Virus record (IMG/VR): IMGVR_UViG_2698536580_000004
Location: 1 to 26,180 of that record
From: a virus
Lineage: Duplodnaviria; Heunggongvirae; Uroviricota; Caudoviricetes
Reading direction: 5' to 3' (one strand)
DNA: 26,180 nt
This document shows, piece after piece, positions 1 to 21,080 of this stretch. The first letter of the stretch is position 1. Each line of letters opens with the position of its first letter. The notes below the pieces were generated by a model. That model saw nothing but the letters and a program-made list of their open reading frames with translations, had not been told where the DNA came from and did not search any database. The translations under genes were made by a program, and so were the position numbers.

Positions 1-873
1 TCAGTCAGATAATCTGGGGCGAAGTGAGCATATGTCATTGTTTGCTCGATTGTTGTATGACCCAAAATACGCTGTAGCGTGATGATATTCCCTCCGTTGA
101 TCATGAAATGTGTTGCGAAGGTATGGCGTAAAACATGCAGTATCGAACAATTTCCCCGATTTGCGTGTAAGGATGTAGTCCGCGATTTCCTTCGATATCG
201 GAACAGTACGAGCTGGGCCGGTTTTGGTCTTAACAAAGGTCACACGGTTACTTATCACGTTTTCAGCTTTAAGATTACTGGCTTCACCCCATCGTGCTCC
301 TGTATTCAGGCAAAGAACGACAACTCTGCGATCATCCCCTGTAAGGGCATTCAGCAAATGGTGGATCTCTTCTTCGGACAGAAAGGACATTTCTGTGTTT
401 TCCAGACGTAACTTCTTCACGGCGCGAAACGGGTTTTCGTGATGAAATTCTTCCATATCTATCAGCAAACTGAACATGCTGGACATGGAACAGAAATCCC
501 TGTTTACCGTGCCAGCGGACACTCCACTATGAAGTCGTTCTGCACGATATTTCATCAGAAAGTTGCGGGTAAGCTCGTACACTCTGGGTTCGGCCATTTC
601 GCGGTTGATTTTTTCCAGACGCTTTTTATATGAGTCACCATAGTTGTGATTCTTTCCATGGTAGCTCCACCATAAAGAAATTAACTCGGATACAAGCCTC
701 CTGTCTGCGGGTTTGTCCTGCCATTCTTTATCGTGAAAGTTTGTCAGTACATATCGCTCGTATGCCTGTGCTTCCGCCTTTCTGTCAAATTTGCGTCGAA
801 TCCTTCTTCCTGTGGTTCCGCGCGGTCTAACGTCCACTTCAAAACGACCATCATCAAGCTTCTTAATCGACAT
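1..873 (-). CDS. int: tyrosine integrase (P2-like), 3' part disrupted; annotated frame stops at window position 1
   Basis: ORF-track frame encodes box-I-like NTGARWGEASNL and FVKTKTGPARTVPIS. Start at ATG 873 (MSIKK) is preceded by GGAGGG 7 nt upstream; the track start at 900 is an alternative. The catalytic box II is in another frame (see findings). Confidence 0.7.
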   Translation of the reverse strand: MSIKKLDDGRFEVDVRPRGTTGRRIRRKFDRKAEAQAYERYVLTNFHDKEWQDKPADRRLVSELISLWWSYHGKNHNYGDSYKKRLEKINREMAEPRVYELTRNFLMKYRAERLHSGVSAGTVNRDFCSMSSMFSLLIDMEEFHHENPFRAVKKLRLENTEMSFLSEEEIHHLLNALTGDDRRVVVLCLNTGARWGEASNLKAENVISNRVTFVKTKTGPARTVPISKEIADYILTRKSGKLFDTACFTPYLRNTFHDQRREYHHATAYFGSYNNRANNDICSLRPRLSD

Positions 874-939
874 AGCGAAGCCCTCCGATGTATGAATCAT
901 TATGTAAATTTTGCGCTAACGCATAGAAAAACCAGATGT

Positions 940-1248
940 TTAGCCAGTTTTTCGGGGTGAACGGGATGATGTTGTGTTGTCGTGCCCATCAGGGGAGAGA
1001 GACGGGGATACCTGCCCCGCGCTCGGTGCTGTCTTATCTGTCATTAACCAGAGTGTGTATTTTTCGAATCGTGGGTGTTTTAGTATCACATCAATAATTG
1101 CTAGCCCTGCCTCTCTTTGGCCACTTTCATAGTTTTTAACCGTACTCAAAGCAATGCCAATCATCTCCGAGAAGGATGATTGCGTTAGCCCTTCAGCCTT
1201 CCTGATTTGTCGCAATTTCTGAGCATGAGTCCTTGACGAGGTATTCAT
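940..1248 (-). CDS. C: immunity repressor, P2 C-type (HTH)
   Basis: 102 aa; C-terminal half (KYTLWLMT...SPRKTG) and length resemble the P2 C repressor as I recall it; divergent from the cox-like gene. Confidence 0.7.
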   Translation of the reverse strand: MNTSSRTHAQKLRQIRKAEGLTQSSFSEMIGIALSTVKNYESGQREAGLAIIDVILKHPRFEKYTLWLMTDKTAPSAGQVSPSLSPDGHDNTTSSRSPRKTG

Positions 1249-1349: not shown

Positions 1350-1631
1350 ATGAAGGAACCAGCAGAAAAGGCGCTTTCAGAGTTGGTGACCCCTGAGCTT
1401 TTTGCCGAATATATAGGCAAAACGCCTGCTGCAATTCGCAAAATGGCCACGGCTGGAAAACTGCCGGTAATCCGCATGAAAGACCCTCTAAATCCATCAA
1501 AAAAAGGTGGGGAAATCTATATCCATCGGGGGGAATGGGATGCTTATGCCCTTCATTTGGCTCAAATTGCCCCGCCTGAATGGCATGACTGGAAGAACCG
1601 TTTATTCACGAAAGATAAAAGTGCTCGTTAG
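1350..1631 (+). CDS. cox: Cox-like excisionase/transcriptional regulator
   Basis: 93 aa; motif FAEYIGKTPAAIRKMATAGKLPVIRMKDP matches the P2 Cox pattern (...GKLPVI.M.DP); position divergent from the repressor. Confidence 0.7.
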   Translation: MKEPAEKALSELVTPELFAEYIGKTPAAIRKMATAGKLPVIRMKDPLNPSKKGGEIYIHRGEWDAYALHLAQIAPPEWHDWKNRLFTKDKSAR

Positions 1632-1657
1632 TAAACTAAATATTATTGGGGATTATC

Positions 1658-1993
1658 ATGAAGACTAAATACGCCACTCTTATTCGTAACCTGTTGCAGA
1701 GTTACCATGCTCAGGCAAACGCTATTGAAAAAGAAACGTTCTCTGTCCATAGCGATGGCTTGCAGTTAATGGAATTGAATATCCAGCTTGCGAAATGTCT
1801 TGAGGGAATTACTTCTACTGCCCGTTTTAATAACGACAGTGATGATTTTGAAGAGTTGCACAAGATTACGCTTATGGTGTTTGGTGGGAATATACCAACT
1901 GAAAATAAAATTTCCGGCCTTATGTCGCTTGCTACCACAGCGTTAAAAAGTAATAACTCGCATCTTAAATCTGTTGCAGCTTCCCAACGTTAA
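1658..1993 (+). CDS. hypothetical early protein
   Basis: ORF-track frame 1646-1993 begins at TTG; first ATG at 1658 (MKTKYAT) has a GGGGA-type SD a few nt upstream. No motif recognised. Confidence 0.5.
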   Translation: MKTKYATLIRNLLQSYHAQANAIEKETFSVHSDGLQLMELNIQLAKCLEGITSTARFNNDSDDFEELHKITLMVFGGNIPTENKISGLMSLATTALKSNNSHLKSVAASQR

Positions 1994-2002
1994 GGAGCCG
2001 AT

Positions 2003-2572
2003 ATGAAACATTTAATGATTGACCTTGAAACAATGGATAATAAACCGACTTCTGCGATTGCTTCTATCGGTGCTGTGTTCTTTGACCCTGAAACTGGCGA
2101 AATGGGTGAGCAGTTTTATCAACGTGTCAGCCTGGGCAGTTGTGTAGGCCACGGTCTCACTATGGGTTCAGAAACCGTATTATGGTGGATGCGTCAGGAT
2201 GCCGAAGCGCGTAGCGAGCTGCTTAATGATGATTGCCTGGACTTGCCTCTGGCTTTAGCGAATCTGGAAGCCTTTATTACTGAGCATTCTGACCCATCTA
2301 AAGTGCAGGTATGGGGGAATGGTGCGGCGTTCGACAATGTTATTTTACGTAATGCATCAGATAAATGCGGGTTTGCCGATCCACTTTGGTACTACTGGAA
2401 TGACCGTGATGTAAGAACGGTTGTTGAACTTTCAAAAACACTTGGGCTGAATGTTCGTAATATTATTAAGTTTGATGGTGTTAAACATCACGCTTTATAT
2501 GATGCCATTCATCAGGCTAAAGTTGTTTCTTATGTCTGGATGTACCTTGTAAAAATAGCTAGTGTGAAATGA
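2003..2572 (+). CDS. DEDDh-family 3'-5' exonuclease (DnaQ/RNase T-like fold)
   Basis: 189 aa; N-terminal MIDLETMD (Exo I, D-x-E), mid NGAAFD, C-terminal HHALYDA (H-x4-D) fit DEDDh exonuclease motifs; strong SD AAGGAG before the ATG. Confidence 0.7.
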   Translation: MKHLMIDLETMDNKPTSAIASIGAVFFDPETGEMGEQFYQRVSLGSCVGHGLTMGSETVLWWMRQDAEARSELLNDDCLDLPLALANLEAFITEHSDPSKVQVWGNGAAFDNVILRNASDKCGFADPLWYYWNDRDVRTVVELSKTLGLNVRNIIKFDGVKHHALYDAIHQAKVVSYVWMYLVKIASVK

Positions 2573-2793
2573 CGATGCTTACAGTGACCTCTCATGCAAG
2601 TGAAAGTGTCATAGCAAAGGCATTTTCTGTGCTGACGGAATATTACAGCGGCAAAAAAGTATATCAGGTTATAAAACCGCATCATTATTTTTCTGTGCAT
2701 GTCTCTTATCGCTGGCGATTATTGAGTAAAGATAGGGGGCGGCATTGGGAGTTAATGACGCATGAGCGATATAACAAACAATACCGAATATAG
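2569..2793 (+). CDS. hypothetical protein
   Basis: 74-aa ORF whose ATG overlaps the exonuclease stop (ATGA); no motif recognised. Confidence 0.4.
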   Translation: MTMLTVTSHASESVIAKAFSVLTEYYSGKKVYQVIKPHHYFSVHVSYRWRLLSKDRGRHWELMTHERYNKQYRI

Positions 2794-2831
2794 TTTTTTG
2801 CCTTTTATACCTTTCTACATCTGGATTAATT

Positions 2832-5489
2832 ATGAATGCCACAATACAGCAGGACGTTGTGCGCCGGCTCGTTCAGGATTTTGAATTTAAAGAACGGGAT
2901 AAATATTTGCAGCAGGGCGTTTGCCCTAAATGCCATAAACGCGAATTATTCACCAGTATAGAAAAGCCCTGGATACTGAAGTGCGGCCGTGAAAACAACT
3001 GCGGCCATCAGGTCGTTGTCAAAGAGCAGTATCCTGAAATCTTTGAGGACTGGTCTAAGCGGTACCAGGACACCCCTGAAACCCCACATGCCGCTGCTGA
3101 GGCGTACCTGCGTGAGGCGCGGGGGCTGGATACTGAACCGCTAAAAGGTTGCTTTACTCAGGGCGCGTTCGTGAAGGATGGCATGGGGTCGGCAACGGTC
3201 AGATTTTCGCTGTCATGCGGTGCAACATGGGAGCGCATCATTGACCAGCCGCAGCGCTTTGGTAAGCAGAAAGCGAACATCAGAGGCAGCTATGTTGGTC
3301 ACTGGTGGGTTCCGCCTTCTGTGAACCTGCTGGAAGTGGATGAAATCTGGATCACTGAGGGAATCTTCAACGCACTGAGTCTGTGCCAGGCAGGGTTTCC
3401 TGCAGTTGCCACACTGAGCAGTAACAACTATCCGCTGGCCGCACTGGATTCGCTGGCCAAAGAACTGGGTGAAAAACCACGTCCACGTCTTGTATGGGCG
3501 TTTGACGGCGATAAAGCCGGCACAAAGCACACGCTGGCGTTCGCTGCCCGTAGTGATGCTGCAGGATGGAAAACCCGTGCCGCGCAGCCGGTGAAATCAT
3601 CGGCATCGCTGGACTGGAATGACCTGTTGTTACGTAACCGGTTCAGTAAGTCGGACATTAAAAATTATCGCTACTATGGCGATCTCCTTCTGGCAAAAAG
3701 CCCGACTGAGAAAGCCCTTCTTATGCATCAGCACAATGAATGGCACTCGTTTTATTTCGAACATGGTTCCCGCATGTACTGGTTTGAGCTGGATCTGGAC
3801 AGGTACATGCGAGCCTATGAGCGCATCACCAATACCGGTACCGAAGTGGTGATGGAGTGGGAGGCAAAAGAACGGGCGGTTAAAGAGTCAGGCGGTGTGA
3901 CCGAAATTGCCAACTGCTGGCTGACGCCGCTTTATTTCCAGCGGTCTGAACCTACAGACGAGTCCTGGTATTACGTGAAGGTCAGTATGCCGAACCGGCC
4001 AGCCGTGAAAGATACTTTTACGGCTAATCAGCTCACCAGTTCCGCCGAGTTCAAAAAGCGTCTTCTGCATATCGCCAAGGGGGCGGTGTATACCGGCAGT
4101 ACCAAACAGCTGGATAAGTTCATCCAGATGCGCCTCCCTGAAATCAAAGAAGTTAAGACGCAGAATTTCATTGGATACAACAAAGATTATGCCGCCTGGC
4201 TATTTAACCGTGTGGCCGTGTGTGATGGCCGGCTGTATGAGATGAACGACGAGGATTATTTCGAAATCAACAGCGCCAGCGTTAAGAGCCTGAGCCTCAC
4301 GCCGGCGCTGGATCTGAATCCGAAGCTGAACGAATTCACCACGGGCTGGGTTGACGATATCTGGACAGCGTTTGGTGAAAAAGGGTATGTGGCGCTGGCG
4401 TTCTGGCTGGGGTCGCTGTTCGCTGAGCAAATCCGGGAGCGTGACAAGTCATTTCCGTTTCTGGAAATCGTGGGCGAGCCGGGGACAGGTAAATCCACGC
4501 TGATAGAATTTCTCTGGAAGCTCGCCGGCCGTGAGGAATACGAAGGGTTTGATCCTTCTAAATCAACAGCCGCAGCGCGTGGACGCAACTTTGCCCAGGT
4601 TGGCAACCTTCCGGTTGTGCTGATTGAGGGCGACCGCACCACGGATAACGCTAAACAACGCGCTTTTGACTGGGACGAGCTGAAATCACTGTATAACGGT
4701 CGTGCCTCCCGTGCCGTGGGTATCAAATCGAACAATAACGAGACGTATGAGCCGCCATTCAGGGGAAGCATTGTGATAGCGCAAAATGCCGACACAGACG
4801 GCAGCAAGGCCTTTCTGGAGCGTATCATCCACATCTATACCGACAAGCGCGGCCAGTCCATTCAGACCCGCTACGCCGCCGAACGGCTTGAACAGATACC
4901 CGTTAGTCAGGTATCCGGGTTCACACTGCTGGCCACCATGCGTGAAAAAGAAATCATGAAGGTGTTCGGTCAGGGCTACGAACGCGCCCGTAGTGAGCTG
5001 GAGTCCAATACCAGTATTCGCCATATTCGTATCGCCAAAAACCACGCGCAACTGGTTGGTCTGCTGGATGCGCTGGCGTTGGTTGTACCAGTACCGATGG
5101 AACGTATTGAGAAGACCCGCGATGCAATTACCGCGCTGGCCGTGGAACGGTGTCAGGCGCTTAAAAAGGATCACCCTCTGGTGCAGGAATTCTGGGAGCT
5201 GTTTGATTACCTGGATGAACTTGCACCTTATGGCATCAATCATTCATCAGATGAAAATGAAATCGCGGTTAACTTCAATCACATGGAAGAGGTAGCCGCA
5301 GCACACCGGCAGCGTATTCCGTTCACATTAACGGAAATTAAAAAGCTGCTTAAAAACGGTAATGAACGGCGGTTCATCAGACAAAGTACCACGCGCAGCG
5401 CGGTAAGTGAGCGCCATAATCGTGGTAAAGGGGATATGCAACGGATGCCGGAAACATTCCGCTGCTGGATATTTAATAGAGAAAAGTAG
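2832..5489 (+). CDS. replication primase-helicase (zinc ribbon + TOPRIM + P-loop NTPase; P4 alpha-like architecture)
   Basis: 885 aa. N-terminal CPKCHKRE...LKCGRENNCGH zinc ribbon; TOPRIM-like WITEG (Glu) and WAFDGDKAG (DxD); Walker A GEPGTGKST followed by VVLIEGD. Confidence 0.75.
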   Translation: MNATIQQDVVRRLVQDFEFKERDKYLQQGVCPKCHKRELFTSIEKPWILKCGRENNCGHQVVVKEQYPEIFEDWSKRYQDTPETPHAAAEAYLREARGLDTEPLKGCFTQGAFVKDGMGSATVRFSLSCGATWERIIDQPQRFGKQKANIRGSYVGHWWVPPSVNLLEVDEIWITEGIFNALSLCQAGFPAVATLSSNNYPLAALDSLAKELGEKPRPRLVWAFDGDKAGTKHTLAFAARSDAAGWKTRAAQPVKSSASLDWNDLLLRNRFSKSDIKNYRYYGDLLLAKSPTEKALLMHQHNEWHSFYFEHGSRMYWFELDLDRYMRAYERITNTGTEVVMEWEAKERAVKESGGVTEIANCWLTPLYFQRSEPTDESWYYVKVSMPNRPAVKDTFTANQLTSSAEFKKRLLHIAKGAVYTGSTKQLDKFIQMRLPEIKEVKTQNFIGYNKDYAAWLFNRVAVCDGRLYEMNDEDYFEINSASVKSLSLTPALDLNPKLNEFTTGWVDDIWTAFGEKGYVALAFWLGSLFAEQIRERDKSFPFLEIVGEPGTGKSTLIEFLWKLAGREEYEGFDPSKSTAAARGRNFAQVGNLPVVLIEGDRTTDNAKQRAFDWDELKSLYNGRASRAVGIKSNNNETYEPPFRGSIVIAQNADTDGSKAFLERIIHIYTDKRGQSIQTRYAAERLEQIPVSQVSGFTLLATMREKEIMKVFGQGYERARSELESNTSIRHIRIAKNHAQLVGLLDALALVVPVPMERIEKTRDAITALAVERCQALKKDHPLVQEFWELFDYLDELAPYGINHSSDENEIAVNFNHMEEVAAAHRQRIPFTLTEIKKLLKNGNERRFIRQSTTRSAVSERHNRGKGDMQRMPETFRCWIFNREK

Positions 5490-5520
5490 GAGGAAAGTTC
5501 TATGTGTGATTGCTTAAAAC

Positions 5521-5778
5521 ATGTCGGTAATGCAGTTAAAACTCGTCTGCTTGAAAAAAGTACCTGAAGGAGCGGAAGTATTTGAGGGATTCGAGACGGG
5601 GTGGGATAACTCTGTATTTTTTCTTTCTAGTGGTCGTATTCATGTAAATATGCGCTATAAGATGGCATTCAGGGCGAAAAAGAAAAATGGTGACATGGCA
5701 AAGAACCTTACTCATCTGGAGTGCAGTGTTGCGATGGCATATTGCCCGTTTTGTGGTGAAAAAGAGAACGCCTTATGA
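5521..5778 (+). CDS. hypothetical small protein (coding status uncertain)
   Basis: 85-aa ORF in the AT-rich segment after the primase gene; no SD at its ATG; contains a T-rich low-complexity stretch; C-terminal CPFCGE. May instead be non-coding (possible cos region). Confidence 0.3.
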   Translation: MSVMQLKLVCLKKVPEGAEVFEGFETGWDNSVFFLSSGRIHVNMRYKMAFRAKKKNGDMAKNLTHLECSVAMAYCPFCGEKENAL

Positions 5779-6026
5779 AACAGGATTATTATTCGTATGA
5801 GGAATTGCTGATGGGGATGTTTAATATCGGTGATGAACTTTATGAAACGACTGATTTTGATGAACTGACGATGGAACATTTTGAAGTCAGTTTTGAGCAG
5901 TTTGCTAATATTGTCGATGCCTTATTGCCATTTACAGCTTTGGTTTGCTCTCCTTTAAGTGGAAGAAATTATCACGCATTTCTTAAAGATGGCATTGCCT
6001 TTATTAAGACTGAGGCCAGTGTGTAA
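5775..6026 (+). CDS. hypothetical small acidic protein
   Basis: 83-aa ORF, ATG overlaps the stop of the upstream ORF (ATGA); followed immediately by a terminator hairpin. Confidence 0.4.
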   Translation: MKQDYYSYEELLMGMFNIGDELYETTDFDELTMEHFEVSFEQFANIVDALLPFTALVCSPLSGRNYHAFLKDGIAFIKTEASV

Positions 6027-6032
6027 AAAGTA

Positions 6033-6055
6033 AGGCACCAGTTGGTGCCTTTTTC
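6033..6055. terminator. bidirectional rho-independent terminator between convergent genes
   Basis: Hairpin AGGCACC-AGTT-GGTGCCT (6033-6050) followed by TTTTC on the plus strand and preceded by AAAAAG (T-run on the minus strand); sits between the stops of convergent genes. Confidence 0.7.
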
Positions 6056-6384
6056 TAAGCAGCTGCTGTGCCGTCCTGACTTAAAAACTTGAGCATCAGC
6101 TGTTTTTGCTGCATATCAAGGCTGTTGCAGATAGTGGCGATCAACGCATCGCAGGATTTGGCGCTGGGGCTGATGGTATGTGAGAATGTCATATTCATCA
6201 CAAAAGTGTGACCACATTCAACATCGGTACACGCACAATATAAATCCGACAGTTCCTTGTGTTTTCGGGCTGTTTTTTTGATAACAGCCCTTGCCTCACA
6301 TACCGGACAGTAAACCTTCATTACCCGCATATCCATCGCTCCGGAAGTTGGAAAACGATGATATTTTAGCCTTTTTGCGGACAT
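6055..6384 (-). CDS. ogr: Ogr/Delta-like zinc-finger late-gene transcriptional activator (extended)
   Basis: CPVC-x20-CAC-x4-C with HTF after the last Cys, matching the P2 Ogr four-Cys arrangement; 109 aa as called, possible internal starts (MDMRV or MKVY); first ATG overlaps the portal stop (TAATG). Confidence 0.65.
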   Translation of the reverse strand: MSAKRLKYHRFPTSGAMDMRVMKVYCPVCEARAVIKKTARKHKELSDLYCACTDVECGHTFVMNMTFSHTISPSAKSCDALIATICNSLDMQQKQLMLKFLSQDGTAAA

Positions 6385-7403
6385 TAATCACCTTCCAGCT
6401 CACTGTCTTTCAGGAAATTAAGGTACAGGTGGGGCGGTACATCACTTTCCTGTTCCACTGCGGCGGTAAACATGCGCTGAATGGGCAAAATCTCTGCTTT
6501 GCGGTAGGTTTTGGCCGCTTTCTCAACATCTCCCATTACTGCGCCGTTCGTCGGGATAATCCCCGCCAGTCCTGCCGGGAATCGATGCGCGGTCAGTACG
6601 TCCTGGGCGCTGATGCTCTTGATGTTCTGAAACTCATCTTTGGCGCTGATATCACCAATCGGGATAAATTTGATGCCGTCCGGATCGCCTTTGGGGATGT
6701 TCACAAACATGGTGCTGAAGTTCCCGATCCCCTTTGACTGCTCCAGCTTCTGAATAATTTCTTCTTCCACTTCATCAGTCATATTTGGGTCGTTACAGTA
6801 GATCATACCACCTGTGTGTCCGCCGTTATGGTAGTAACGCCGACGAAAAATTGTTGCCTCACCGTTAAGCAGGGCAGAATGGATACCGCTGATATAATCT
6901 GGCAGACCATAAATCGCCTGTTGCGGATCGTACTGCCTGAGAAAAATAATATCTTCAGGCGGATAAATCATCGGTTCACCCTGCTGCAGTACCACAAACT
7001 CCCCGGTCTTACGCTGGCGGGTATAGAGTGCCGGCAGCGGGTACAGTGCCACCACATCCCCCCAGCCGTTACGCACTTTCAGAATGGCCACATCACCGAA
7101 GGTCAGCCAGTCGAACACGGCTGCACCAAGCTGTTCATGCGTCAGTCCGCCGTCTTTATAGTTTGCCGTCACCATATTGCGACGGGCATACAGCACACCG
7201 CCGTGCTGCGCGTTCAGGTTCACCAGTTGCGCCAGCGCCAGCCGGTCAATCGGGAGCGTCCAGTGTTCCGCTTCATTGTCATACCAGACGTCTGTGTAGT
7301 TTGTGCCGGTCGTCAGAATGGGTTCCGGTTTACCCAGGGTAATAAGGCTCATATGGCGCGGCTTGCTGGCGGTGCGGCGTTCCCTGTATTTCCGTTTTTT
7401 CAT
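6384..7403 (-). CDS. Q: portal vertex protein (P2 gpQ-like)
   Basis: 339 aa; block YGLPDY...LLNGEATIFRRRYY...DGIKFIP...KDEFQNIK is typical of P2 Q portal proteins; adjacent to and co-oriented with the large terminase. Confidence 0.85.
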   Translation of the reverse strand: MKKRKYRERRTASKPRHMSLITLGKPEPILTTGTNYTDVWYDNEAEHWTLPIDRLALAQLVNLNAQHGGVLYARRNMVTANYKDGGLTHEQLGAAVFDWLTFGDVAILKVRNGWGDVVALYPLPALYTRQRKTGEFVVLQQGEPMIYPPEDIIFLRQYDPQQAIYGLPDYISGIHSALLNGEATIFRRRYYHNGGHTGGMIYCNDPNMTDEVEEEIIQKLEQSKGIGNFSTMFVNIPKGDPDGIKFIPIGDISAKDEFQNIKSISAQDVLTAHRFPAGLAGIIPTNGAVMGDVEKAAKTYRKAEILPIQRMFTAAVEQESDVPPHLYLNFLKDSELEGD

Positions 7404-9181
7404 GCTGCTTTCCCTAAGTTACCCCAGCGTGATTTTCGCTGGTTTTCAAAGTTTAATGGCTCGTTGTCAATGGCATGGGCGATAGCCCAGAAACTGTCAG
7501 CGTGGCCGGTTTCTGCTGTACGGTCAGCGACAAACGTCATGGCGTTACCGCTGGCTGTGGACGTGCGGCGGATAGTCATAAAACTGGCGGCAATTTCGGT
7601 TTTTTCCTTATCCCATTCCACACGGCCATCTTCGATAACGTCGATCATCTTCATCACCAGGCGATTTTTCGTCTCCACGCCATAGCGGATAGGCACCGCC
7701 TGACGCATGGCGAAGTGCTGCACATCCTCAAAGACCCCGCTCCCCAGTCCGGTAATATCAATGCCGATGTAAGTCATGTTGTACTGACCAAACAGCTTTT
7801 TGATTTGTGCCGCCTGCCACTTCCAGTTCATCCCCTGCCAGTGAAATACACGCAGCACACGAAATTTTTCGCCGGCCACTATCGGCGGCGCGATAATCAC
7901 AAAGGTGGAGGTGTCACCGCTACGAGCCGGATCATAGCCCGCCCACACTTCACGATTGCCGAACGGCCGGGGCAGGTTTTCGTCATGATCCTCCCAGATA
8001 TCCGGATCAACACAGCAGCGTTCCACGTGAGAGAACGAAAATACGCTGTCCTTGCTGTCCACGAACACGCACATATACAGCATGTTGAAAGTGTCGCGGT
8101 TGTAGCGGTTGCGCAGTTTCCCGATGCTGGCGAGATTAAACCCGCCTGCGATCGCGTCTTCCATCGTGATGATGTAGCGCCACTGACCATCAGGACATAA
8201 CCGTCCACCGTCACGCAGCTCCTTCTCCGTGGGAAATTGTACGCGTGCACGTTTTTTGTCACCGCGCTTCCATTCTTCACCTGTCCAGAACGGGTATGCC
8301 TGGTGCGTTTTGCTGCTGGGGGTGGAAAAGTAGGTGGTTCGCCATTTGTCGTGTGTGGCCATCGCGCTGGCCACTTCGTTTAATTTTGCAAAGTTGGGTA
8401 CCCAGAAATATTCATCGCAGTACAGATGGCCGCTGTATGACTGGGCGGTGTTCTTGTTGGTGGACAGGAATCGCAGCTCCGCGCCGTTGGAGAGGCGGAT
8501 GGGGTTTCCTGTCAGCTCCACGCCGAAATACTGCTCCGCAATGTTGACGATATAGCTGCGGAATACTTCAGCCTGAGCCTTTGATGCAGACAGGAAGATT
8601 TGCGGATCGCCTGTCATTACCGCATTCTCAAAGGCTTCTATTGAGAAATACCAGGTTGCACCAATCTGGCGGCTTTTCAGGATGTTCCTGATTTGCTGAT
8701 GAAGATTAGCGCGAAGGTGTTTCTGGTAGCCGAAAAGGTGCTCCAGCGCGAACCGGTCAAAATCTTCCTGTGTCAGCCCGCTGATGTCGTTCTTTTTGTA
8801 CTTGCCACGTTTCCGGGACTTTTCGTCGCCACCGGACTGGCGCGCCGGCGCATCATTTTCACTGTGTTTAATTTCTGCCAGCTTTTCCTGATGCTTATTG
8901 TGCTGTGCACGTAGTTTCACCAGGTGAGAAACGAGACTGTCCAGCTCCCGCAGCTCCAGCTCCGATTTCCCTTCACGTAATGTCAGTGACTGAATGCGAC
9001 GGTTTAATGCATCTTCGGTGGATTCATGACTGAGTAATTCCGCCCAGCAATATTTCTCCGCCCAGTAATAGACAATGCGTCTGTTAGGCAGATTAAGTTC
9101 GCTGGCAATTTCCTGCGGGGTATAGCGTTTTAAATAAAGCGCCCGCGCAACGCCTTTTAATTCTTCTGAATATTTAGCCAT
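7400..9181 (-). CDS. P: terminase large (ATPase) subunit (P2 gpP-like)
   Basis: ~593 aa; size and position match P2 gpP; overlaps the portal start. Track start at 9196 is GTG; first ATG is at 9181 (MAKYSEEL). Neither has a clear SD. Confidence 0.8.
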   Translation of the reverse strand: MAKYSEELKGVARALYLKRYTPQEIASELNLPNRRIVYYWAEKYCWAELLSHESTEDALNRRIQSLTLREGKSELELRELDSLVSHLVKLRAQHNKHQEKLAEIKHSENDAPARQSGGDEKSRKRGKYKKNDISGLTQEDFDRFALEHLFGYQKHLRANLHQQIRNILKSRQIGATWYFSIEAFENAVMTGDPQIFLSASKAQAEVFRSYIVNIAEQYFGVELTGNPIRLSNGAELRFLSTNKNTAQSYSGHLYCDEYFWVPNFAKLNEVASAMATHDKWRTTYFSTPSSKTHQAYPFWTGEEWKRGDKKRARVQFPTEKELRDGGRLCPDGQWRYIITMEDAIAGGFNLASIGKLRNRYNRDTFNMLYMCVFVDSKDSVFSFSHVERCCVDPDIWEDHDENLPRPFGNREVWAGYDPARSGDTSTFVIIAPPIVAGEKFRVLRVFHWQGMNWKWQAAQIKKLFGQYNMTYIGIDITGLGSGVFEDVQHFAMRQAVPIRYGVETKNRLVMKMIDVIEDGRVEWDKEKTEIAASFMTIRRTSTASGNAMTFVADRTAETGHADSFWAIAHAIDNEPLNFENQRKSRWGNLGKAA

Positions 9182-9324
9182 GCACACATTATGCACGGGC
9201 GTTTGTATATTAAATCCCGCTTTATTTCTGATGTGTTCGGCTAATAGCCTATATCCGAAATGAAGTGAATGCGGCGGTTAATTTTATTGGCGATACTGAA
9301 AACCGCAGCATGAACGGAGGCAAT
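9182..9324. promoter_or_regulatory. divergent late promoter region (terminase/portal leftward, capsid operon rightward)
   Basis: Only sizeable non-coding gap between divergent late operons; AT-rich. No canonical TGT-N12-ACA Ogr box found by eye. Confidence 0.4.
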
Positions 9325-10164
9325 ATGTCAGGTTCACAACTGGCAACAAACTGGATTTGTATCGCCACTGCGGGTGAAACGGTTGATAAGCGATTTATTG
9401 AAGAACAATGGTTGCTTGATGCCGCTGAATTATATGACCCCTCTTTGTATACCGCGCTGTTATGGCCGGAACATTCCCGTAATTTCGGGAATATGGGGGA
9501 GGTGCTGGAAGTAAAAGCCGAGCGAGATGATGAAGGTATTCTTCGTTTATATGCCCGCCTCTGTCCGGCGATTTCATTGCTACAGGCAAATGCAGACGGT
9601 CAGCTTTTATTTTTATCACCGGAGTTTACACCGGACGGCAATTTCAGAAATACCGGGAAAACCTATCTTGAGGGACTGGCCATTACTGACAGTCCGGCCG
9701 GGGTAAGCACCACACGGTTACGTTTCAGCCGCACCAGGGGAAAACGCATCGGACCATACAAGCCGCTGGCGTTTGATGAAGTCAGGGAATTTAAAAAGGA
9801 AAAGGGAATGTCAAAGACAGCGAAAAAGGGCTGGCGCCATTTTTTCAGTATCGAAGAACCGGAGCAGACCCCGGAGCAGGAACCTTCACAGTCTGATGCC
9901 TTACAGGCGCTGGCTGAAGCGCTGGATGCCATTGATAAGCGCGTATCTGCTATTGAAACCCGTCTGGGTGAGGCGGAAGAAGCGGTATCTGATGTGCAGG
10001 ACGATGTGGACACAGTGAAGGAAGTGGTGGACACCGAAGATTTTGCGCGTCTGGTGGGGAACCTGCCGGAGCTGGTGAAAAACTTCAGCAAGCTGAATAA
10101 CAAAGTTACTCAACTGCCGGACAAGAAATTCAGCAAGGGCAAAAAAGGCTTCAATTTCCTGTAA
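9325..10164 (+). CDS. O: capsid scaffolding protein (P2 gpO-like)
   Basis: Track ORF starts at GTG 9265; ATG at 9325 (MSGSQL) has GGAGG 5 nt upstream, giving ~279 aa (P2 gpO is ~284 aa). Acidic C-terminal half; position before the major capsid gene. Confidence 0.75.
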   Translation: MSGSQLATNWICIATAGETVDKRFIEEQWLLDAAELYDPSLYTALLWPEHSRNFGNMGEVLEVKAERDDEGILRLYARLCPAISLLQANADGQLLFLSPEFTPDGNFRNTGKTYLEGLAITDSPAGVSTTRLRFSRTRGKRIGPYKPLAFDEVREFKKEKGMSKTAKKGWRHFFSIEEPEQTPEQEPSQSDALQALAEALDAIDKRVSAIETRLGEAEEAVSDVQDDVDTVKEVVDTEDFARLVGNLPELVKNFSKLNNKVTQLPDKKFSKGKKGFNFL

Positions 10165-10198
10165 GGGATAACACTACTTTTCTTTAAGGAAAAAGAAT

Positions 10199-11227
10199 AT
10201 GCAATTAAATGCGAAAGCCCGTGAGTTCCTGCTTCAGTATCACACCGGGCTGCGTGAATCCTACGGGGCGACCGACAGTGAACGCTGGTTTGCACTCACC
10301 GACCCCAAAGAAACCCAGCTGCGCAATGCGCTGATGGAGCAGTCTGATTTCCTGAATCTGATCACCGTTGCCGATGTCGATCAGCTGCAGGGGCAGGTGG
10401 TTCCGGTTGGCAGCTCTGGCCTGTATACCGGGCGTGTGCTGGATGGCCGCTTCCGTAAGAAAGTGGGCGTGAGTGGTAATGATTACAGTCTGGTCGAGAC
10501 TGACTCATGCGCCGCACTCACCTGGCAGTTGCTTTCTGTCTGGGCGAACGCCGGCGATGAAAACGAGTTTTTCCAGCGTGTTCAGGAGTTCACCAATCAG
10601 GCGTTTGCGCTGGATATGCTGCGTATCGGCTTTAACGGTACCAAAGTAGCCGAAACCACGAACGCGGAAACCAACCCGAACGGCGAGGATGTGAACAAGG
10701 GCTGGCATCAGATCGTCAAAGAGTGGAAGGACGGCCAGCAGATCATCACTGATGCGGTGGTGCTGGACGGTGACGGGAAAGGCGATTACGTGTCGCTGGA
10801 TGCAATGGCTTCCGATCTTATCAATACCAAAATCCCGGCACAGTACCGTAATGACCCGCGTCTGGTGGTTCTTGTCGGCGCTGACCTTGTGGCAGCTGAA
10901 TCTTTCCGCCTGTACCAGAAAGCGGATAAGCCGACCGAGAAGATTGCCGCACAGCTGCTGTCTGACAGTATCGCCGGCCGCACGGCTTACGTCCCGCCGT
11001 TTATGCCGGGCAAACGTATGATCGTCACCACGCTGCCGAACCTGCACATCTACACCCAGCGCGGCACGCGCCAGCGCAAGGCAGAGTTTGTGGAAGACCG
11101 TAAACAGTACGAAAACAAATACCTGCGTAACGAAGGTTATGCGGTTGAGTATCCGGAACTGTACGCCGCGTTTGATGAAAGTGCGGTAACTATCGGGGCA
11201 CCTGTCGCGCCTCCGGCAGGCGAGTAA
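10199..11227 (+). CDS. N: major capsid protein (P2 gpN-like)
   Basis: 342 aa, directly after the scaffold gene with an AAGGAAA SD; size and synteny match P2 gpN. Confidence 0.8.
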   Translation: MQLNAKAREFLLQYHTGLRESYGATDSERWFALTDPKETQLRNALMEQSDFLNLITVADVDQLQGQVVPVGSSGLYTGRVLDGRFRKKVGVSGNDYSLVETDSCAALTWQLLSVWANAGDENEFFQRVQEFTNQAFALDMLRIGFNGTKVAETTNAETNPNGEDVNKGWHQIVKEWKDGQQIITDAVVLDGDGKGDYVSLDAMASDLINTKIPAQYRNDPRLVVLVGADLVAAESFRLYQKADKPTEKIAAQLLSDSIAGRTAYVPPFMPGKRMIVTTLPNLHIYTQRGTRQRKAEFVEDRKQYENKYLRNEGYAVEYPELYAAFDESAVTIGAPVAPPAGE

Positions 11228-11237
11228 GGGGGATTTA

Positions 11238-11936
11238 ATGCAACTGTCACCGGCACAGCGCCACAGCGCACGAATTGAAGCGGAGCGGTTACTGCGACAG
11301 CAGCAGTCTCTGGACACGGAAACCAGCCTGCATATTCAGATTGTCGCGCTGGAGAAAGATGTCGTCGCAGCTGCAGCGATTGAAAGCCGCGCTGAGCGCA
11401 TGGAGTTTAAGCGTGATGTGCTGTTACCGCGCTGGATGCCGACCGCGCAATCCTGGCTGGAAGGTGACAGTGTGCAACAGAATCCTGTTTTTGCCTGGTG
11501 TGTCGTCTGGCTGTTTGATACAGGCCAGTTTGACCAGGCGCTGGACTGGGCGGATGTGGCAATCCAGCGGGGGCAGGAAACCCCGGCCGCGTTCGGCAGT
11601 ACGTTCCCGGTGTTTGTGGCGGATACGGTGTTGTCCTGGGCGGAAGCGGAAGCCGTACAGGGGCATGAAGTGGAGCCGTACTTCAGCCGTACGCTGGAAA
11701 ACGTGACGCAGCACTGGAATGTGTATGAGGTCATTAAGGCCAAATACCTGAAGTTTGCCGGTCTGCACCTGCTACGCGATGAAAACGGAGAGCCACGCGC
11801 AGCGGCAACGGAAGACAGGGAAGTATTGCTCCGGGCTAAGGAACTGCTGGAGCAGGCGAAGGGATTCGACCCTAAATGTGGTGTCGGCACGATGTTGCAG
11901 CGTATTGCTGCGCGTCTGCGGGCGCTGAAAAAATAG
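11238..11936 (+). CDS. M: terminase small (endonuclease) subunit (P2 gpM-like)
   Basis: 232 aa; position after the capsid gene and size match P2 gpM. Confidence 0.7.
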   Translation: MQLSPAQRHSARIEAERLLRQQQSLDTETSLHIQIVALEKDVVAAAAIESRAERMEFKRDVLLPRWMPTAQSWLEGDSVQQNPVFAWCVVWLFDTGQFDQALDWADVAIQRGQETPAAFGSTFPVFVADTVLSWAEAEAVQGHEVEPYFSRTLENVTQHWNVYEVIKAKYLKFAGLHLLRDENGEPRAAATEDREVLLRAKELLEQAKGFDPKCGVGTMLQRIAARLRALKK

Positions 11937-11952
11937 TCTACGGGAGTTTGAT

Positions 11953-12144
11953 ATGTCGTTTAAGCATGAGTTAGGCCAGGTTGTTGAAGTTTCCATTAGC
12001 GGCGAAGAGGGGCATATCAAAGCCCGTGCGGAGTACACCAACAGCTGCAATCAGTATCTGATCCACTATCAGACTGCTGACGGTCGCGCATCTGATGCGT
12101 GGTTTGAAGAAGGTGAGATTCAGGCCGCAAAACGCGGCGAGTAA
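11953..12144 (+). CDS. hypothetical 63-aa protein
   Basis: Short ORF with a GGGAG SD inserted between the small terminase and head completion genes; no motif recognised. Confidence 0.4.
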   Translation: MSFKHELGQVVEVSISGEEGHIKARAEYTNSCNQYLIHYQTADGRASDAWFEEGEIQAAKRGE

Positions 12145-12157
12145 GACTACCGACCCG

Positions 12158-12224
12158 AAAGCGGGCGCGGTGGAGGGGATCGCATAAGCGTATCGCCCGT
12201 GGAAACCGGCCAGCCCGCTTTTTT
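12158..12224 (+). terminator. structured element / possible attenuator or terminator before head completion gene
   Basis: GCGGGC (12161-12166) pairs with GCCCGC (12213-12218), followed by TTTTTT (12219-12224); the ~46-nt intervening GC-rich loop may fold further. Confidence 0.35.
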
Positions 12225-12237
12225 CCGGAGAAACAGG

Positions 12238-12690
12238 ATGTTCAGCGGAACTTCAATTGATTTTGACGATGCCACTCTGACGAATGATGGCTTCTGGCCT
12301 GACCTGAGCGTGAAGGATTTTCAGTCCCAGCGCACCATTCCGGCCGATATTGATGTGGCCACCATCCGCCAGGCACTGCTGACTGCAGCCGGCGAAATCA
12401 ATGATGATCTGGTCAGTGTGGCGGCAAGGTATCGCAATGCTGGCCATGAGCGCGCGGCGGACGTTCCGGGCGTGGAAATTGACGGCGAAAATCTGTTGTG
12501 CGCCCGTTATCGCAAAGCGGTATATGCACGTGCCAAAGCTGATTTGATGGGCGAATTTGCGTCTGTTGGTCGCCGTGAGAGCCATCCGGGGCAGGAAAGT
12601 GACGAAACCCGCTCCAGCCTGATTGCAGAGTCCACACTGGCAGTACGCCGCATCAAAGGGCTGAAACGCATTACGGTGGCCATGATATGA
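12238..12690 (+). CDS. L: head completion/stabilisation protein (P2 gpL-like)
   Basis: Track ORF starts at GTG 12199; ATG at 12238 (MFSGTSIDF) follows a GGAGAAACAGG SD; ~150 aa; position after small terminase. Confidence 0.6.
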   Translation: MFSGTSIDFDDATLTNDGFWPDLSVKDFQSQRTIPADIDVATIRQALLTAAGEINDDLVSVAARYRNAGHERAADVPGVEIDGENLLCARYRKAVYARAKADLMGEFASVGRRESHPGQESDETRSSLIAESTLAVRRIKGLKRITVAMI

Positions 12691-13169
12691 GCCAGTTAAC
12701 GGCATTAACCGATTTTCTCATTGCGAACATGCCCAGACGGGCAATGCAGGGATTTGACAGCCAGATGGACGAGATCGCGTTCATCCCGGCACAGCGGGAC
12801 ATCGGGCTGGGGCAGTACCGTATTGCCATCATCCGTTATAACGCCGTGCTGACGTGGGAGCGTTATCCCTACCGCGAGTACGATCCCAAAATCCTGATGG
12901 CTTTGTTTATGTCGTGGCTTTGCCAGGATGAGCGCACGCTCTTTGAGGAAACCGGCATTGACGCCGAGCTGCCGGAATTTGATATCGAAACCATCGACCA
13001 GGAAACCGCCATCATGGTGGTGACGCTGCCAATGGTGGAGGAACTTAATCTGGTTCCCGATCCCAAAGGCCAGATCCCGTTTGATGGCCAGCGCTGGAAG
13101 CTGGCAAACCCCGAAGTCTGGACGGCTGATGAGGTGACGGTGATTCCGGTCAGTGAGGGGCAGGAATGA
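12687..13169 (+). CDS. putative tail completion protein (gpR-like)
   Basis: 160 aa; ATGA overlap with the upstream gene; called by position between head completion and the morphogenesis gene. Confidence 0.4.
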   Translation: MSQLTALTDFLIANMPRRAMQGFDSQMDEIAFIPAQRDIGLGQYRIAIIRYNAVLTWERYPYREYDPKILMALFMSWLCQDERTLFEETGIDAELPEFDIETIDQETAIMVVTLPMVEELNLVPDPKGQIPFDGQRWKLANPEVWTADEVTVIPVSEGQE

Positions 13170-13870
13170 TAAATGGCGAGCTGAACAAGGAACAGTTCCG
13201 CCAGCTCCAGGAGGCGCTGAAAAAACTGGATTTACCTTCTGCGAAACGTCGCCGGCTGTTGTGGCGTATGGCGAAATACGGCGTGGAAGCTGCAGCAAAG
13301 CGTAATGTGCGCAATCAGCAGTCGCCGGAGGGTGATAAGTGGCAGGCGCGACAGACCCGGCGTAAAGGCAAAATGTTGCGCAATATGCCGAAACTGATCC
13401 GCATCCGGGAAATGCCTGAAACAGAGTCGGTCAGGCTGTATCTGGCCGGTGGTCATTACCGGAATGCGAAGGGAAATCTGCCCGCCGGCGTGGTGGGGTA
13501 TGTCCAGCAGAACGGCATGAGCGTGACCGTCAACCGTAAGCAGGTGGAAGGCCGTGAGCAGGGGGACAAGCCTGCATCACTGCGACAGGCGAAACGTCTG
13601 CGCAAGGCCGGGTATAAAGTCAGGCGCGGTAAGCGCTGGCGTAAGCCCGGTTATAAGGAAATACAGGAAAGGATGACCGCCAGACAGGTAGGTTTGCTTA
13701 TCCGGATACTGGAGGACAAACCGGTCAAAACGTCCTGGCAGATTGATTTACCTGCCAGGGCGTTTCTGGGGATAGGTCAGGATGATTTTAACAAAGCGCT
13801 GGCGCGACAGCTGCAGGCTATCGGGTTCGGCTGGGATGTTAACGCGCAGGATATCAGGGGGAGAGCATGA
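13166..13870 (+). CDS. virion morphogenesis / tail completion protein (gpS-like)
   Basis: 234 aa, basic; ATGA overlap; positional call only. Confidence 0.45.
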   Translation: MINGELNKEQFRQLQEALKKLDLPSAKRRRLLWRMAKYGVEAAAKRNVRNQQSPEGDKWQARQTRRKGKMLRNMPKLIRIREMPETESVRLYLAGGHYRNAKGNLPAGVVGYVQQNGMSVTVNRKQVEGREQGDKPASLRQAKRLRKAGYKVRRGKRWRKPGYKEIQERMTARQVGLLIRILEDKPVKTSWQIDLPARAFLGIGQDDFNKALARQLQAIGFGWDVNAQDIRGRA

Positions 13871-14994
13871 CCTGGCCAATTGTGACCGTAAACCAGGTAA
13901 ATCAGCTGCTGGGTGAAACCACGGAAGTGGAGCGCACGCTGCTGTTTATCGGCACGGGAACCAAAAATGTAGGTAAGACGCTGGCAGTTAACGCACAGAG
14001 TGATTTTGATGCGCTGCTGGGCGAGGGTGACAGCCCGTTAAAAAGTGATGTGCTGGCCGCACTGGCGAACGCCGGCCAGAACTGGTGGGGATTTGTTCAT
14101 GTGCTGGCCGCAGACAGCGAGCCGGGGGCATGGGTGGATGCCGTTAAGGCCGCACAGCTCTCCTGTTCGGTGGAAGGTGTGGTGCTGTCTGATGATGTGG
14201 CCGCGAAAGCGCAGATTAACCAGGCGGCAACGCTGCGATCTGAACTGATTGCTAAATACGGGCGCTGGGTGTGGTTCATTCTGGCGGTTCAGGGGATGCA
14301 GCAGGATGAAGCCCAGGCGGATTATCTGGTGCGTCTGTCCACTCTTCAGGAAGGTATTGCGGAAAAAGCGGTACAGCTGGTACCCCGTCTCTGGGGGAAT
14401 GAACCGGGCGTGCTGGCTGGTCGTCTCTGCAACCGTGCTGTCACCATCGCCGACAGTCCGGCGCGGGTGAAAACAGGCGCGTTGCTGAGCATGGGCAGTG
14501 ATGAACTGCCGAAAGACGGTGCCGGCGAAACGCTGGAACTGGCGACCCTTCAGGCGCTGGAGGCACAGCGCTACAGCGTGCCGATGTGGTATCCGGACTA
14601 TGACGGCTTTTACTGGGCTGACGGGCGCACGCTGGACGTTGAGGGCGGCGATTACCAGTCCATTGAGACGCTGCGTATTGTGGATAAGGCAGCACGCCGC
14701 GTCCGTCTGCTGGCCATCGGTAAGATTGCCGATCGCTCACTTAACAGTACACCGGGCAGTATTGCCGCACACCAGACGCTGTTTGCCCGTCCGCTGCGGG
14801 AAATGTCCACTGCGGCCAGCATTAACGGCGTGTCATTTCCGGGCGAGGTGAAACCTCCACAGGACGGTGACGTGACCATTGTCTGGAAGAACAAAAAGGC
14901 GGTGGATATTTACATTGTGGTGCGTACGTATGAAGTACCGCTGCAGATCACCATCAGTCTGTTACTGGATGCAAGTCTGGAGGCCAGCGCATGA
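13867..14994 (+). CDS. putative contractile tail sheath protein
   Basis: 375 aa, largest structural ORF directly upstream of a ~150-aa tube-sized gene in a tail with baseplate J-like and fibre genes; positional inference. Confidence 0.45.
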   Translation: MTWPIVTVNQVNQLLGETTEVERTLLFIGTGTKNVGKTLAVNAQSDFDALLGEGDSPLKSDVLAALANAGQNWWGFVHVLAADSEPGAWVDAVKAAQLSCSVEGVVLSDDVAAKAQINQAATLRSELIAKYGRWVWFILAVQGMQQDEAQADYLVRLSTLQEGIAEKAVQLVPRLWGNEPGVLAGRLCNRAVTIADSPARVKTGALLSMGSDELPKDGAGETLELATLQALEAQRYSVPMWYPDYDGFYWADGRTLDVEGGDYQSIETLRIVDKAARRVRLLAIGKIADRSLNSTPGSIAAHQTLFARPLREMSTAASINGVSFPGEVKPPQDGDVTIVWKNKKAVDIYIVVRTYEVPLQITISLLLDASLEASA

Positions 14995-15446
14995 CCAAAC
15001 GTATTTCAGGGATGTCCTTTGATATCTATCTGGACGGTGACCTGATCCACATTGAAAAAATTTCGCTGGATATTACCGATAACAGCGCCGCCGCACAGAC
15101 GCGCGGTGTTCCTGACGGGTATGTGGACGGTGACGTTGCCGCCGAGGGTGAAATTGAAGTCAGCTCCAAAGTGCTGCAGGTTCTGACAGCCAAAGCCCGT
15201 TCAGCGGGGTCATGGCGTGGCATTCCTCCGGTTGACTTCCTTTTTTACGCCAAAGCCGGCAGCGAAGAAATGAAAGTGGAAACCTTTGGTAACAAGCTGC
15301 AGCTCAACAGCGTTCTGGATGGTGATCCGAAGGGTGGCAGTGTGTCCACGCATAAAATCAAATACTTCGTGACAAGTCCGAAGTTCGTCAACATCAACGG
15401 TGTGCCGTATCTGGAAGCGGAAGCCACGGAAAACCTGATTGGATAA
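14991..15446 (+). CDS. putative tail tube protein
   Basis: 151 aa, ATGA-coupled to the putative sheath gene; positional inference. Confidence 0.45.
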   Translation: MTKRISGMSFDIYLDGDLIHIEKISLDITDNSAAAQTRGVPDGYVDGDVAAEGEIEVSSKVLQVLTAKARSAGSWRGIPPVDFLFYAKAGSEEMKVETFGNKLQLNSVLDGDPKGGSVSTHKIKYFVTSPKFVNINGVPYLEAEATENLIG

Positions 15447-15458
15447 GAGGCAGCAGGG

Positions 15459-15755
15459 ATGCAGGAGTACGAAAAGGGGTTCATTGCACTGGCAGTCATG
15501 GGGGCGCTGATTGCGCTGGGTAAATTGCTTAACAGTGATGAACCGATCACCCTTCGTCTGGTGGCGGGGCGTGTCATTGTGGGCAGCGGGCTGTCACTGA
15601 TTGCCGGGGTGGCGCTGTACTTTGTCCCGGATATTCACCCGCTCGCATTAGCCGGATTTGGCTCTGCGCTGGGTATCCTGGGGCAGAATGCGGTGGAAGC
15701 CTGGCTGCGTAAGCGGGGTTTTACAGGGATTTTTGATAAAGGGACAGGGAAATGA
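15459..15755 (+). CDS. holin (three predicted TM segments, charged C-terminus)
   Basis: 98 aa with hydrophobic segments FIALAVMGALIALGKLL, VIVGSGLSLIAGVALYFV, LALAGFGSALGILG and basic tail RKRGF; immediately upstream of the endolysin. Confidence 0.6.
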   Translation: MQEYEKGFIALAVMGALIALGKLLNSDEPITLRLVAGRVIVGSGLSLIAGVALYFVPDIHPLALAGFGSALGILGQNAVEAWLRKRGFTGIFDKGTGK

Positions 15756-16093
15756 CTCTGAGCGAAAAACAGCAACTCTTTACCGTTATGGTGGCAAATC
15801 TGATCCAGTGGGCTGAAGAACATGGCTACCGGCTGACGTTTGGTGAGGCTTACCGTACCCCGGAACAGGCTGCACTGAACGCGAAAAAAGGCAGCGGCAT
15901 TTCCAGCAGTCTGCACACGCAACGTCTGGCCGTGGACTTCAATCTGTTCATTAATGGCCAGTATCAGACCGACAGCGCGGCGTATCTGCCGCTGGGTGAA
16001 TACTGGGAATCGCTGGGTGGTTCATGGGGCGGTCGCTTCAAATCCCGCCCTGATGGTAATCATTTCAGCCTGGAACATAACGGGGTGCGCTGA
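15752..16093 (+). CDS. endolysin, M15-family zinc peptidase (L-Ala-D-Glu peptidase type)
   Basis: 113 aa; SLHTQRLAVD (H-x6-D) plus downstream DGNHFSLEH fit the His-Asp-His zinc site of M15 peptidases; ATGA overlap with the holin. Confidence 0.7.
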   Translation: MTLSEKQQLFTVMVANLIQWAEEHGYRLTFGEAYRTPEQAALNAKKGSGISSSLHTQRLAVDFNLFINGQYQTDSAAYLPLGEYWESLGGSWGGRFKSRPDGNHFSLEHNGVR

Positions 16094-16425: not shown

Positions 16426-16585
16426 ATGCGCCACGCAGCTGCCGCGCCTGAGTGGAACGCAGGGAAAAGATGCGGCGGAATTACTGACACTTTATCTGGA
16501 GTTATACGGGCAGTGTGCTGCACGGCATAACGCACTTGTTGATGAAATTAATTTAAGAGAGAACGTTATTTATGGAAAAAATTAA
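16286..16585 (+). CDS. o-spanin lipoprotein (Rz1-like), out-of-frame overlap with i-spanin
   Basis: Different frame starting inside the i-spanin gene; signal peptide ending in lipobox LSAC (Cys codon 16367-16369) then Pro-rich TTTPSPVP; extends past the i-spanin stop. Confidence 0.55.
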   Translation: MRHRVKSARKWLSRYLLISVCLMTLSACTTTPSPVPNVRYQENLKTKCATQLPRLSGTQGKDAAELLTLYLELYGQCAARHNALVDEINLRENVIYGKN

Positions 16586-21071: not shown

Positions 21072-21080
21072 GGAGATTTT

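Follow-up and report, generated by a model that had tools for sequence, protein, structure and literature searches.

The DNA analyzed here (26,180 nucleotides, hereafter the window) begins inside a phage integrase gene, int, whose catalytic residues are spread over two reading frames. This raises the question of whether the prophage that carries it can still leave the chromosome of its host, or whether the lesion belongs to the record and not to the isolate. The window is a slice, cut at gene boundaries, of contig CXYI01000055.1 (55,390 bp) from the E. coli draft assembly GCA_001268825.1, an accession for which our literature search returned no match. All comparisons beyond the window edges used 44.9 kb, consisting of the window stitched to its contig flanks by exact overlaps.

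Our sequence comparisons assign the element to the ESSI-2-like P2-family prophages (IntP2 subgroup), with the window starting inside int and the prophage residing at the raiA/RaiZ terminator, between raiA and pheL. It shares 92.6% DNA identity with Escherichia phage ESSI2_ev239 over 89% of the window and 95.3% identity with prophages at the same site in complete E. coli genomes. The order att-int-C / cox and the head, tail, and lysis genes are P2-type, and the P2-family domains Phage_Cox, Ogr_Delta, Phage_GPO_N, Phage_cap_P2, Phage_GPL, and P2_Phage_GpR are present. Structural and replication modules are common to the window and to ESSI2_ev239 / Cronobacter phage ESSI-2 (P2-family, Peduoviridae), whereas the first roughly 2.5 kb (int, C, cox, and exonuclease) gave no megablast-level match to ESSI2_ev239, indicating that the integration/immunity module differs.

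One integrase domain in two reading frames

A preliminary description of this DNA had placed catalytic box II outside the frame of the integrase open reading frame (ORF), and our analysis bears this out. The minus-strand frame running from 140 to 3 (hereafter the shifted frame) translates as LHVLRHTFATHFMINGGNIITLQRILGHTTIEQTMTYAHFAPDYLT and is stop-free to the window edge, whereas the same DNA in the ORF frame (873..1, or 900..1 when begun at an upstream ATG) reads ...KLFDTACFTPYLRNTFHDQRREYHH... and ends as ...SGKLFDTACFTPYLRNTFHDQRREYHH...LSD, followed by the TGA at 3..1. The third minus-strand frame contains many stops at the left window end. In Pfam comparisons, PF00589 matched the ORF product at profile positions 2-82 only (E 1.3e-8) and the shifted frame at positions 129-169 (E 3.4e-10), while the intact homologue was matched over positions 2-169 in one frame. 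Because the match is split across two frames here and lies in a single frame in the intact homologue, a chance resemblance is excluded, and the two frames hold one integrase domain in two pieces.

The arm-binding N-terminal region and the core-binding domain are present in the ORF product, with an N-terminus identical to that of intact homologues (Table 1). Arg194 and Lys217 lie in one frame, and His268, Arg271, His294, and Tyr303 in the other; the full catalytic set (Arg-I, Lys, His-x-x-Arg, His/Trp, and Tyr) is absent from any single polypeptide translated here. Translation from the upstream ATG would give a product of 299 aa, and no such protein is on record. As recorded, the gene is a pseudogene of an IntP2-subgroup tyrosine recombinase, and its descent from that family is unambiguous.

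Table 1. Coordinates of the integrase locus, its catalytic residues, both deletions, and the neighboring prophage genes (window coordinates unless stated otherwise)
Feature	Position	Strand	Remarks
Integrase ORF (putative pseudogene)	1..873	-	290-aa product; ATG 873..871 is the start in intact 330-aa homologues
In-frame ATG further upstream	900	-	ORF 900..1
Composition of the ORF product	1..873	-	residues 1-245 native, then 45 out-of-frame (missense) residues and TGA 3..1
Int_N PF24624	residues 57-156 of ORF product	-	E 3.3e-28
Box I Arg194	292-294	-	ORF frame; aligned to P2 Int (5c6k) and HP1 Int (1aih)
Beta-hairpin Lys217	223-225	-	ORF frame; aligned to P2 Int (5c6k) and HP1 Int (1aih)
Deletion junction (65 nt)	139..142	-	2-nt 'AC' ambiguity (microhomology) at 140-141
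Box II region L267-T312	3..140	-	shifted frame; 18 codons past edge to native stop
His268	135-137	-	shifted frame
Arg271	126-128	-	shifted frame
His294	57-59	-	shifted frame
Catalytic nucleophile Tyr303	30-32	-	shifted frame
C-type HTH immunity repressor	940..1248	-	PF01381; upstream of int, same strand (P2-like C-int)
Cox-family protein, appears intact	1350..1631	+	PF10743; Cox family annotation in E. coli relative
Replication, head, lysis, and tail genes	1509..26180	+	no lesion detected; 99.9-100% identity, zero indels
63-bp deletion	contig CXYI01000055.1 about 48,977; window coordinate about 28,500 (extracted-locus about 14024)		outside window

Extent and ancestry of the int deletion

A megablast search of window positions 1-1300 against complete E. 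coli genomes returned 18 genomes in which 1065 query bases extended over 1130 record bases in two pieces, and alignment of the source contig with two of the 18 revealed one clean 65-nt gap and nothing else. The missing DNA, ACCAACTATGA[A/G]CGAGTTCGCGATGTTCTTCGTAAGATTAAGCCAGACTTGCCGAAAGGTCAGGC, was found in all relatives compared. In the intact 330-aa protein, this stretch corresponds to N246-A266 (NYERVRDVLRKIKPDLPKGQA), the helix-loop segment that precedes HxxR. Since 65 nt corresponds to 21 codons plus 2 nt (3 x 22 - 1), all downstream sequence is out of frame. The preliminary description had rightly called for an internal deletion near positions 138-150, of a length not divisible by three and distinct from a homopolymer slip (the junction falls at 139-142). 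Its conceptual distance of ~30 residues between the hairpin Lys and the HVLRH box also matches ours (30, from Lys217 to His268). Its size estimate of ~120 nt, or ~40 codons, was too large, as exactly 65 nt (~22 codons) is missing relative to near-identical intact integrases. The overestimate resulted from calibration on XerD and lambda Int, where ~70 residues had been taken as the normal spacing; the Lys-to-His distance in the P2/HP1 subgroup is 51 residues, and values of 51-52 were obtained for the intact relative, as for P2 Int, HP1 Int, and the sister prophages.

A comparison with functional relatives, which had been proposed as a check, pointed to a loss in the window copy. The missing segment is present in P2 Int (5c6k), in HP1 Int (1aih), and in all sister prophages examined. 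As the segment occurs at the same length in P2 Int (5c6k, 5dor) and HP1 Int (1aih), residues 246-266 are ancestral to the family, with a deletion in the window copy and no insertion in its relatives. The P2 integrase structures 5c6k and 5dor are reportedly those of Skaar et al. 2015, and the HP1 integrase structure 1aih is reportedly that of Hickman et al. 1997. When repaired, the window sequence matched the P2 integrase (5c6k) with an E value of 3.9e-97 and the HP1 integrase (1aih) with an E value of 2.7e-47, both of which belong to the IntP2 subgroup of tyrosine recombinases (PMC8138268). With both of these, the intact relative shares the domain order, the R-K-HxxR-H-Y motifs, and the Lys-to-His spacing given above; unlike P2 and HP1 Int, the window copy has its catalytic set distributed over two frames and the segment before HxxR deleted. 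The closest counterparts are the integrase WP_000023380.1 and the T21 allele (P0016) of E. coli and Citrobacter at the same pheL/raiA site, whose DNA is 97.9-100% identical outside the deletion and whose prophages have the same insertion site, C-int/cox arrangement, and attL sequence. Relative to this intact orthologue, the window copy lacks the 65 nt (246-266) and is frameshifted to a 290-aa product that includes 45 missense residues.

These comparisons also bear on whether the gene might encode a functional short or recoded integrase, by way of a naturally short spacing, programmed ribosomal frameshifting, or a separate C-terminal fragment. In the source contig, a 96-codon ORF with a TTG start does span the frame of box II, but no Shine-Dalgarno sequence was seen by eye upstream of the TTG, and a C-terminal fragment would be without Arg194 and Lys217. 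The frame break was present in no relative examined, all of which encode 330-339 aa in one frame, and the 21-residue segment is retained in P2 Int and HP1 Int. A programmed frameshift or a short natural variant is effectively excluded by the relatives and by these two integrases, and we regard a functional product of any of these kinds as barely credible.

The frequency of the lesion among relatives was then informative about its age. The intact protein WP_000023380.1 (330 aa, E. coli) occurs in 567 contigs and the 'repaired' window allele T21 (P0016) in 11 contigs of E. coli and Citrobacter, whereas the 290-aa product occurs in one contig only, CXYI01000055.1 of GCA_001268825.1. In a 90% cluster of 370 members, all members listed are 330-339 aa long except the window copy. 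The identical C repressor was found in nine other contigs, every one of which (9/9) carries a 330- or 339-aa integrase at the same site, and the window int DNA outside the deletion is 100% identical to several of those sister copies. An exact search for the int junction sequence in species-representative genomes, IMG/VR, and JGI metagenomes returned none. Because the lesion is a singleton and the gene carries no additional mutation, this pattern suggests an event that is either very recent or not real.

Loss of int by other means was evident in closed genomes. In E. coli E89, int is broken by an IS100 insertion (extracted-locus coordinates 3647-5900), and in E. coli BY63, it carries IS1, and a deletion extends from int to the tape-measure gene (extracted-locus 5662-6971). 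Integrase inactivation thus recurs independently within the ESSI-2-like prophage family. Two further genomes, BY68 and I3, are near-identical matches to BY63 with the same IS1 and deletion.

Attachment sites and a second deletion at raiA

The att core was defined by comparing the prophage-free attB of K-12 with both prophage ends in relatives. In K-12, attB (extracted-locus about 617-640) consists of CAACAAA, AAAACGCGCCCGAAGGCGCGTT, and GGCGATAC, in this order, and the 23-bp core, AAAACGCGCCCGAAGG(C/T)GCGTT, is the intrinsic terminator for both raiA and the 3'-UTR sRNA RaiZ. Members of this phage family occupy the raiA-pheL site both in E. coli and in contigs with proteins that NCBI assigns to Citrobacter. 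Past the left window edge, the shifted frame continues to its native stop and is followed by attL, pheL, and pheA. Locating attL and attR had been suggested in the preliminary description, and the attL core (AAAACGCGCCCGAAGGTGCGTT; extracted-locus 11012-11033) proved to be intact, adjoining int at ~140-160 bp past the edge. In relatives, attR reads AAAACGCGCCCGAAGGCGCGTT, whereas attR of the window contig retains the first 16-17 bp only. Core position 17 is T in attL and C in attR in every relative examined, and the crossover therefore lies to its left.

The truncated attR results from a second clean deletion on the same contig, of 63 bp, located ~2.3 kb past the right window end (...AAAACGCGCCCGAAG[GCGCGTTGGCG...GAAGTTGGC]GTCTTT...). 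Lost with it are 6-7 bp of the att core on the raiA side (the GGCGCGTT inverted-repeat arm), the final 12 codons of raiA together with its stop, and a portion of RaiZ; in the right-flank gene table, RaiA is 157 aa long, compared with 113 aa normally. The GGCGCGTT arm is a probable Int core-type binding site. This 157-aa RaiA fusion product is a singleton on record, raiA was matched in 5426 of 5426 complete E. coli genomes, and among the top matches listed from these complete genomes, none shares the raiA-side deletion.

Both junctions show 1-2 bp of microhomology. Recombination by Int at a secondary site was rejected as a source of the deletions, as the junctions share these 1-2 bp and not an overlap of roughly 7 bp. 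Slippage mediated by a hairpin was likewise unsupported for int, the region folding no better than shuffled sequence (z = -0.65). The raiA deletion spans the interval between the terminator hairpin and a point shortly beyond a second small hairpin, an arrangement that is suggestive without being decisive. A separate observation concerns a PDB chain labeled 'Ribosome-associated translation inhibitor RaiA' (9i5v_14, 401 residues), which matches the integrase (E 7e-9, chain residues 66-295). The chain has the look of a tyrosine recombinase under an odd or mistaken label, and the coincidence between this label and the raiA insertion site is probably accidental.

Recorded deletions in an otherwise intact prophage

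The structural genes had been described as apparently intact, a view that our comparisons with independent assemblies uphold: from position 1509 onward, the window is free of indels, and its gene lengths equal those of annotated relatives. Identity was 99.97% without an indel between window positions 1509-15778 and a Logan contig from another sample, 99.9% without an indel between positions 14477-26180 and GCA_964332345.1, and 100% over 4 kb for two metagenome scaffolds. The only Logan contig with the unique primase of this phage (run ERR7570119) starts in cox and so does not reach int. Over the 44.9 kb, besides the two deletions and a swap at 5489-6044, we observed only 1-4-bp gaps, all in diverged non-coding stretches, and the chromosomal flanks were indel-free against a closed E. 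coli genome. The phage evidently circulates in near-identical form, and its sequence distribution suggests that it was recently mobile and able to cross genera. Near-identical copies without indels were noted in GCA_964332345.1, one Logan run, and several ENA metagenome scaffolds, and sister prophages were also seen in contigs whose proteins NCBI assigns to Citrobacter.

Several accessory features accompany the conserved modules. Relative to the prophage of E. coli 2018-18.25PC, two small plus-strand ORFs (5521-5778 and 5775-6026; 85 and 83 aa, without a Pfam match) replace a 239-aa minus-strand hypothetical gene in the swap at 5489-6044, and the region looks like a moron or accessory slot between primase and ogr. 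At 2569-2793, a 74-aa ORF with a ParE_like match (PF24732) runs over the stop codon of the 3'-5' exonuclease gene and immediately precedes the gene for the 885-aa toprim primase-helicase; only some sister prophages have this ORF among their called genes, and no obvious antitoxin partner was noted. The Ogr/Delta zinc-finger gene (6055-6384) is called with 109 aa in the window and in the E. coli relative but with 91 aa in the copies from Logan and ENA; since no indel separates the copies, the cause is a difference in start codon or a point difference. Outside the window, between the last tail-region gene and attR, an Acyl_transf_3 gene (367 aa; extracted-locus 12723-13826) on the opposite strand is likely to be lysogenic-conversion cargo, such as a surface polysaccharide acyltransferase.

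Whether the two deletions exist in the isolate is the critical question. It is quite conceivable, at a little below an even chance in our judgment, that int and attR/raiA are intact in the isolate and that the 65-bp and 63-bp gaps arose while a draft was built from short reads, for example, when de Bruijn breaks were wrongly joined at a scaffolding or gap-filling step. Both deletions are singletons confined to one source, a draft assembly. Their sizes are nearly equal, odd, and close to typical k-mer lengths, which would be unexpected for independent natural events within 28 kb. The 63-bp deletion cuts short raiA, a core gene that is universally conserved. Moreover, because int is otherwise 100% identical to intact copies, there is no time-dependent decay to vouch for a genuine pseudogene. 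False joins by greedy scaffolders and gap closers are acknowledged, and typical drafts contain 0.2-1.9 indels per 100 kb (PMC5320598).

Against an artefact, there are no Ns at the junctions, and the indel-free state of the window from 1509 to its end makes a high uniform assembly-error rate unlikely, with the indel-free flanks pointing the same way. By our own estimate, which assumes uniform placement, a random second error would overlap the att core with a probability of roughly 0.004-0.04. Specific assembly models also fared poorly. A de Bruijn branch at the att core, arising from a mixture of attR, attP, and attB, predicts a deletion of k-17 and thus k = 80, an even value unusable in Velvet or SPAdes. 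A SNP bubble at core position 17 is disfavored by the T in attL and C in attR that are fixed in every relative examined.

On balance, we lean slightly toward the reading that both deletions are real, very recent, and post-integration and that they ground an otherwise intact, recently mobile phage. The 65-nt deletion is exact and unique with respect to the E. coli relatives and all nine contigs with the identical C repressor, there are closed-genome precedents for int loss in E89 (IS100) and BY63 (IS1 and deletion), and both lesions strike the excision apparatus. P2-type excision requires Int and Cox, the latter acting as the excision directionality factor and as a repressor of the lysogenic promoter. 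The translated product keeps the arm-binding and core-binding domains with Arg194 and Lys217, lacks His268, Arg271, His294, and Tyr303, and would be unable to cleave DNA. HxxR, His, and the Tyr nucleophile are needed for DNA cleavage by tyrosine recombinases, as is established for the family (PMC8138268). If the record is right, a product without these residues implies a locked-in prophage: excision dependent on Int and Cox would fail unless Int were supplied in trans, and the 63-bp loss at attR would damage the cis site as well and reinforce the lock-in. From one draft assembly, we reasonably infer that the prophage would be unable to excise.

A real lesion without consequence for excision seems very unlikely. 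It would require a related integrase elsewhere to supply Int in trans, or the damaged attR still to recombine. Some E. coli genomes do have two places that match the int region, and attR still has the first 16-17 core bp, with the likely crossover region among them; however, no second integrase was found within the 44.9 kb inspected, and the raiA-side arm, with its probable Int core-type binding site, is gone.

With both deletions taken as real, the 1-2 bp of junction microhomology would fit end-joining or illegitimate recombination. On the attR side, the deletion begins at the predicted right-hand boundary of Int cleavage, between core positions 16 and 17, and extends into the host arm to which Int would be covalently attached, a pattern that would fit, speculatively, the faulty repair of an abortive Int cleavage. 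The lesions could then be mechanistically linked, with abortive cleavage at this boundary leaving a protein-linked break in the host arm, followed by resection and end-joining, and with the loss of int following or being selected; we consider such a linkage improbable. The deletions of 65 bp and 63 bp each correspond to about six helical turns.

The locus does not represent a new kind of system; it is either an ordinary integrase pseudogene or an assembly error, and prophage grounding is itself an already known phenomenon. Grounding by mutations in integrase genes or att sites has been described, and lesions of the recombinase or att site are a proposed route to irreversible lysogeny (PMC6379469). 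As in grounded or defective prophages of E. coli, such as Qin (with intQ'), Rac, e14, and DLP12 (PMC6379469), the recorded lesions lie in the recombinase gene and, on the same contig, in an att site. Those prophages are old and heavily decayed, whereas the window prophage is otherwise intact and 99.9-100% identical to circulating copies. If the deletions are an artefact, the locus would serve as a caution against reading a singleton frameshift in a draft assembly as biology. For annotation, the gene is to be called a pseudogene, and predictors of prophage activity should not score the element as inducible without a check of the reads. If the lesion is real, the event would be the very first step of decay, and a P2-family phage, otherwise intact, would have been immobilized by small deletions in int and attR, providing a clean example of the earliest stage of domestication. 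If the paired lesions in int and attR are both real and linked, they would constitute a molecular footprint of how grounding starts.
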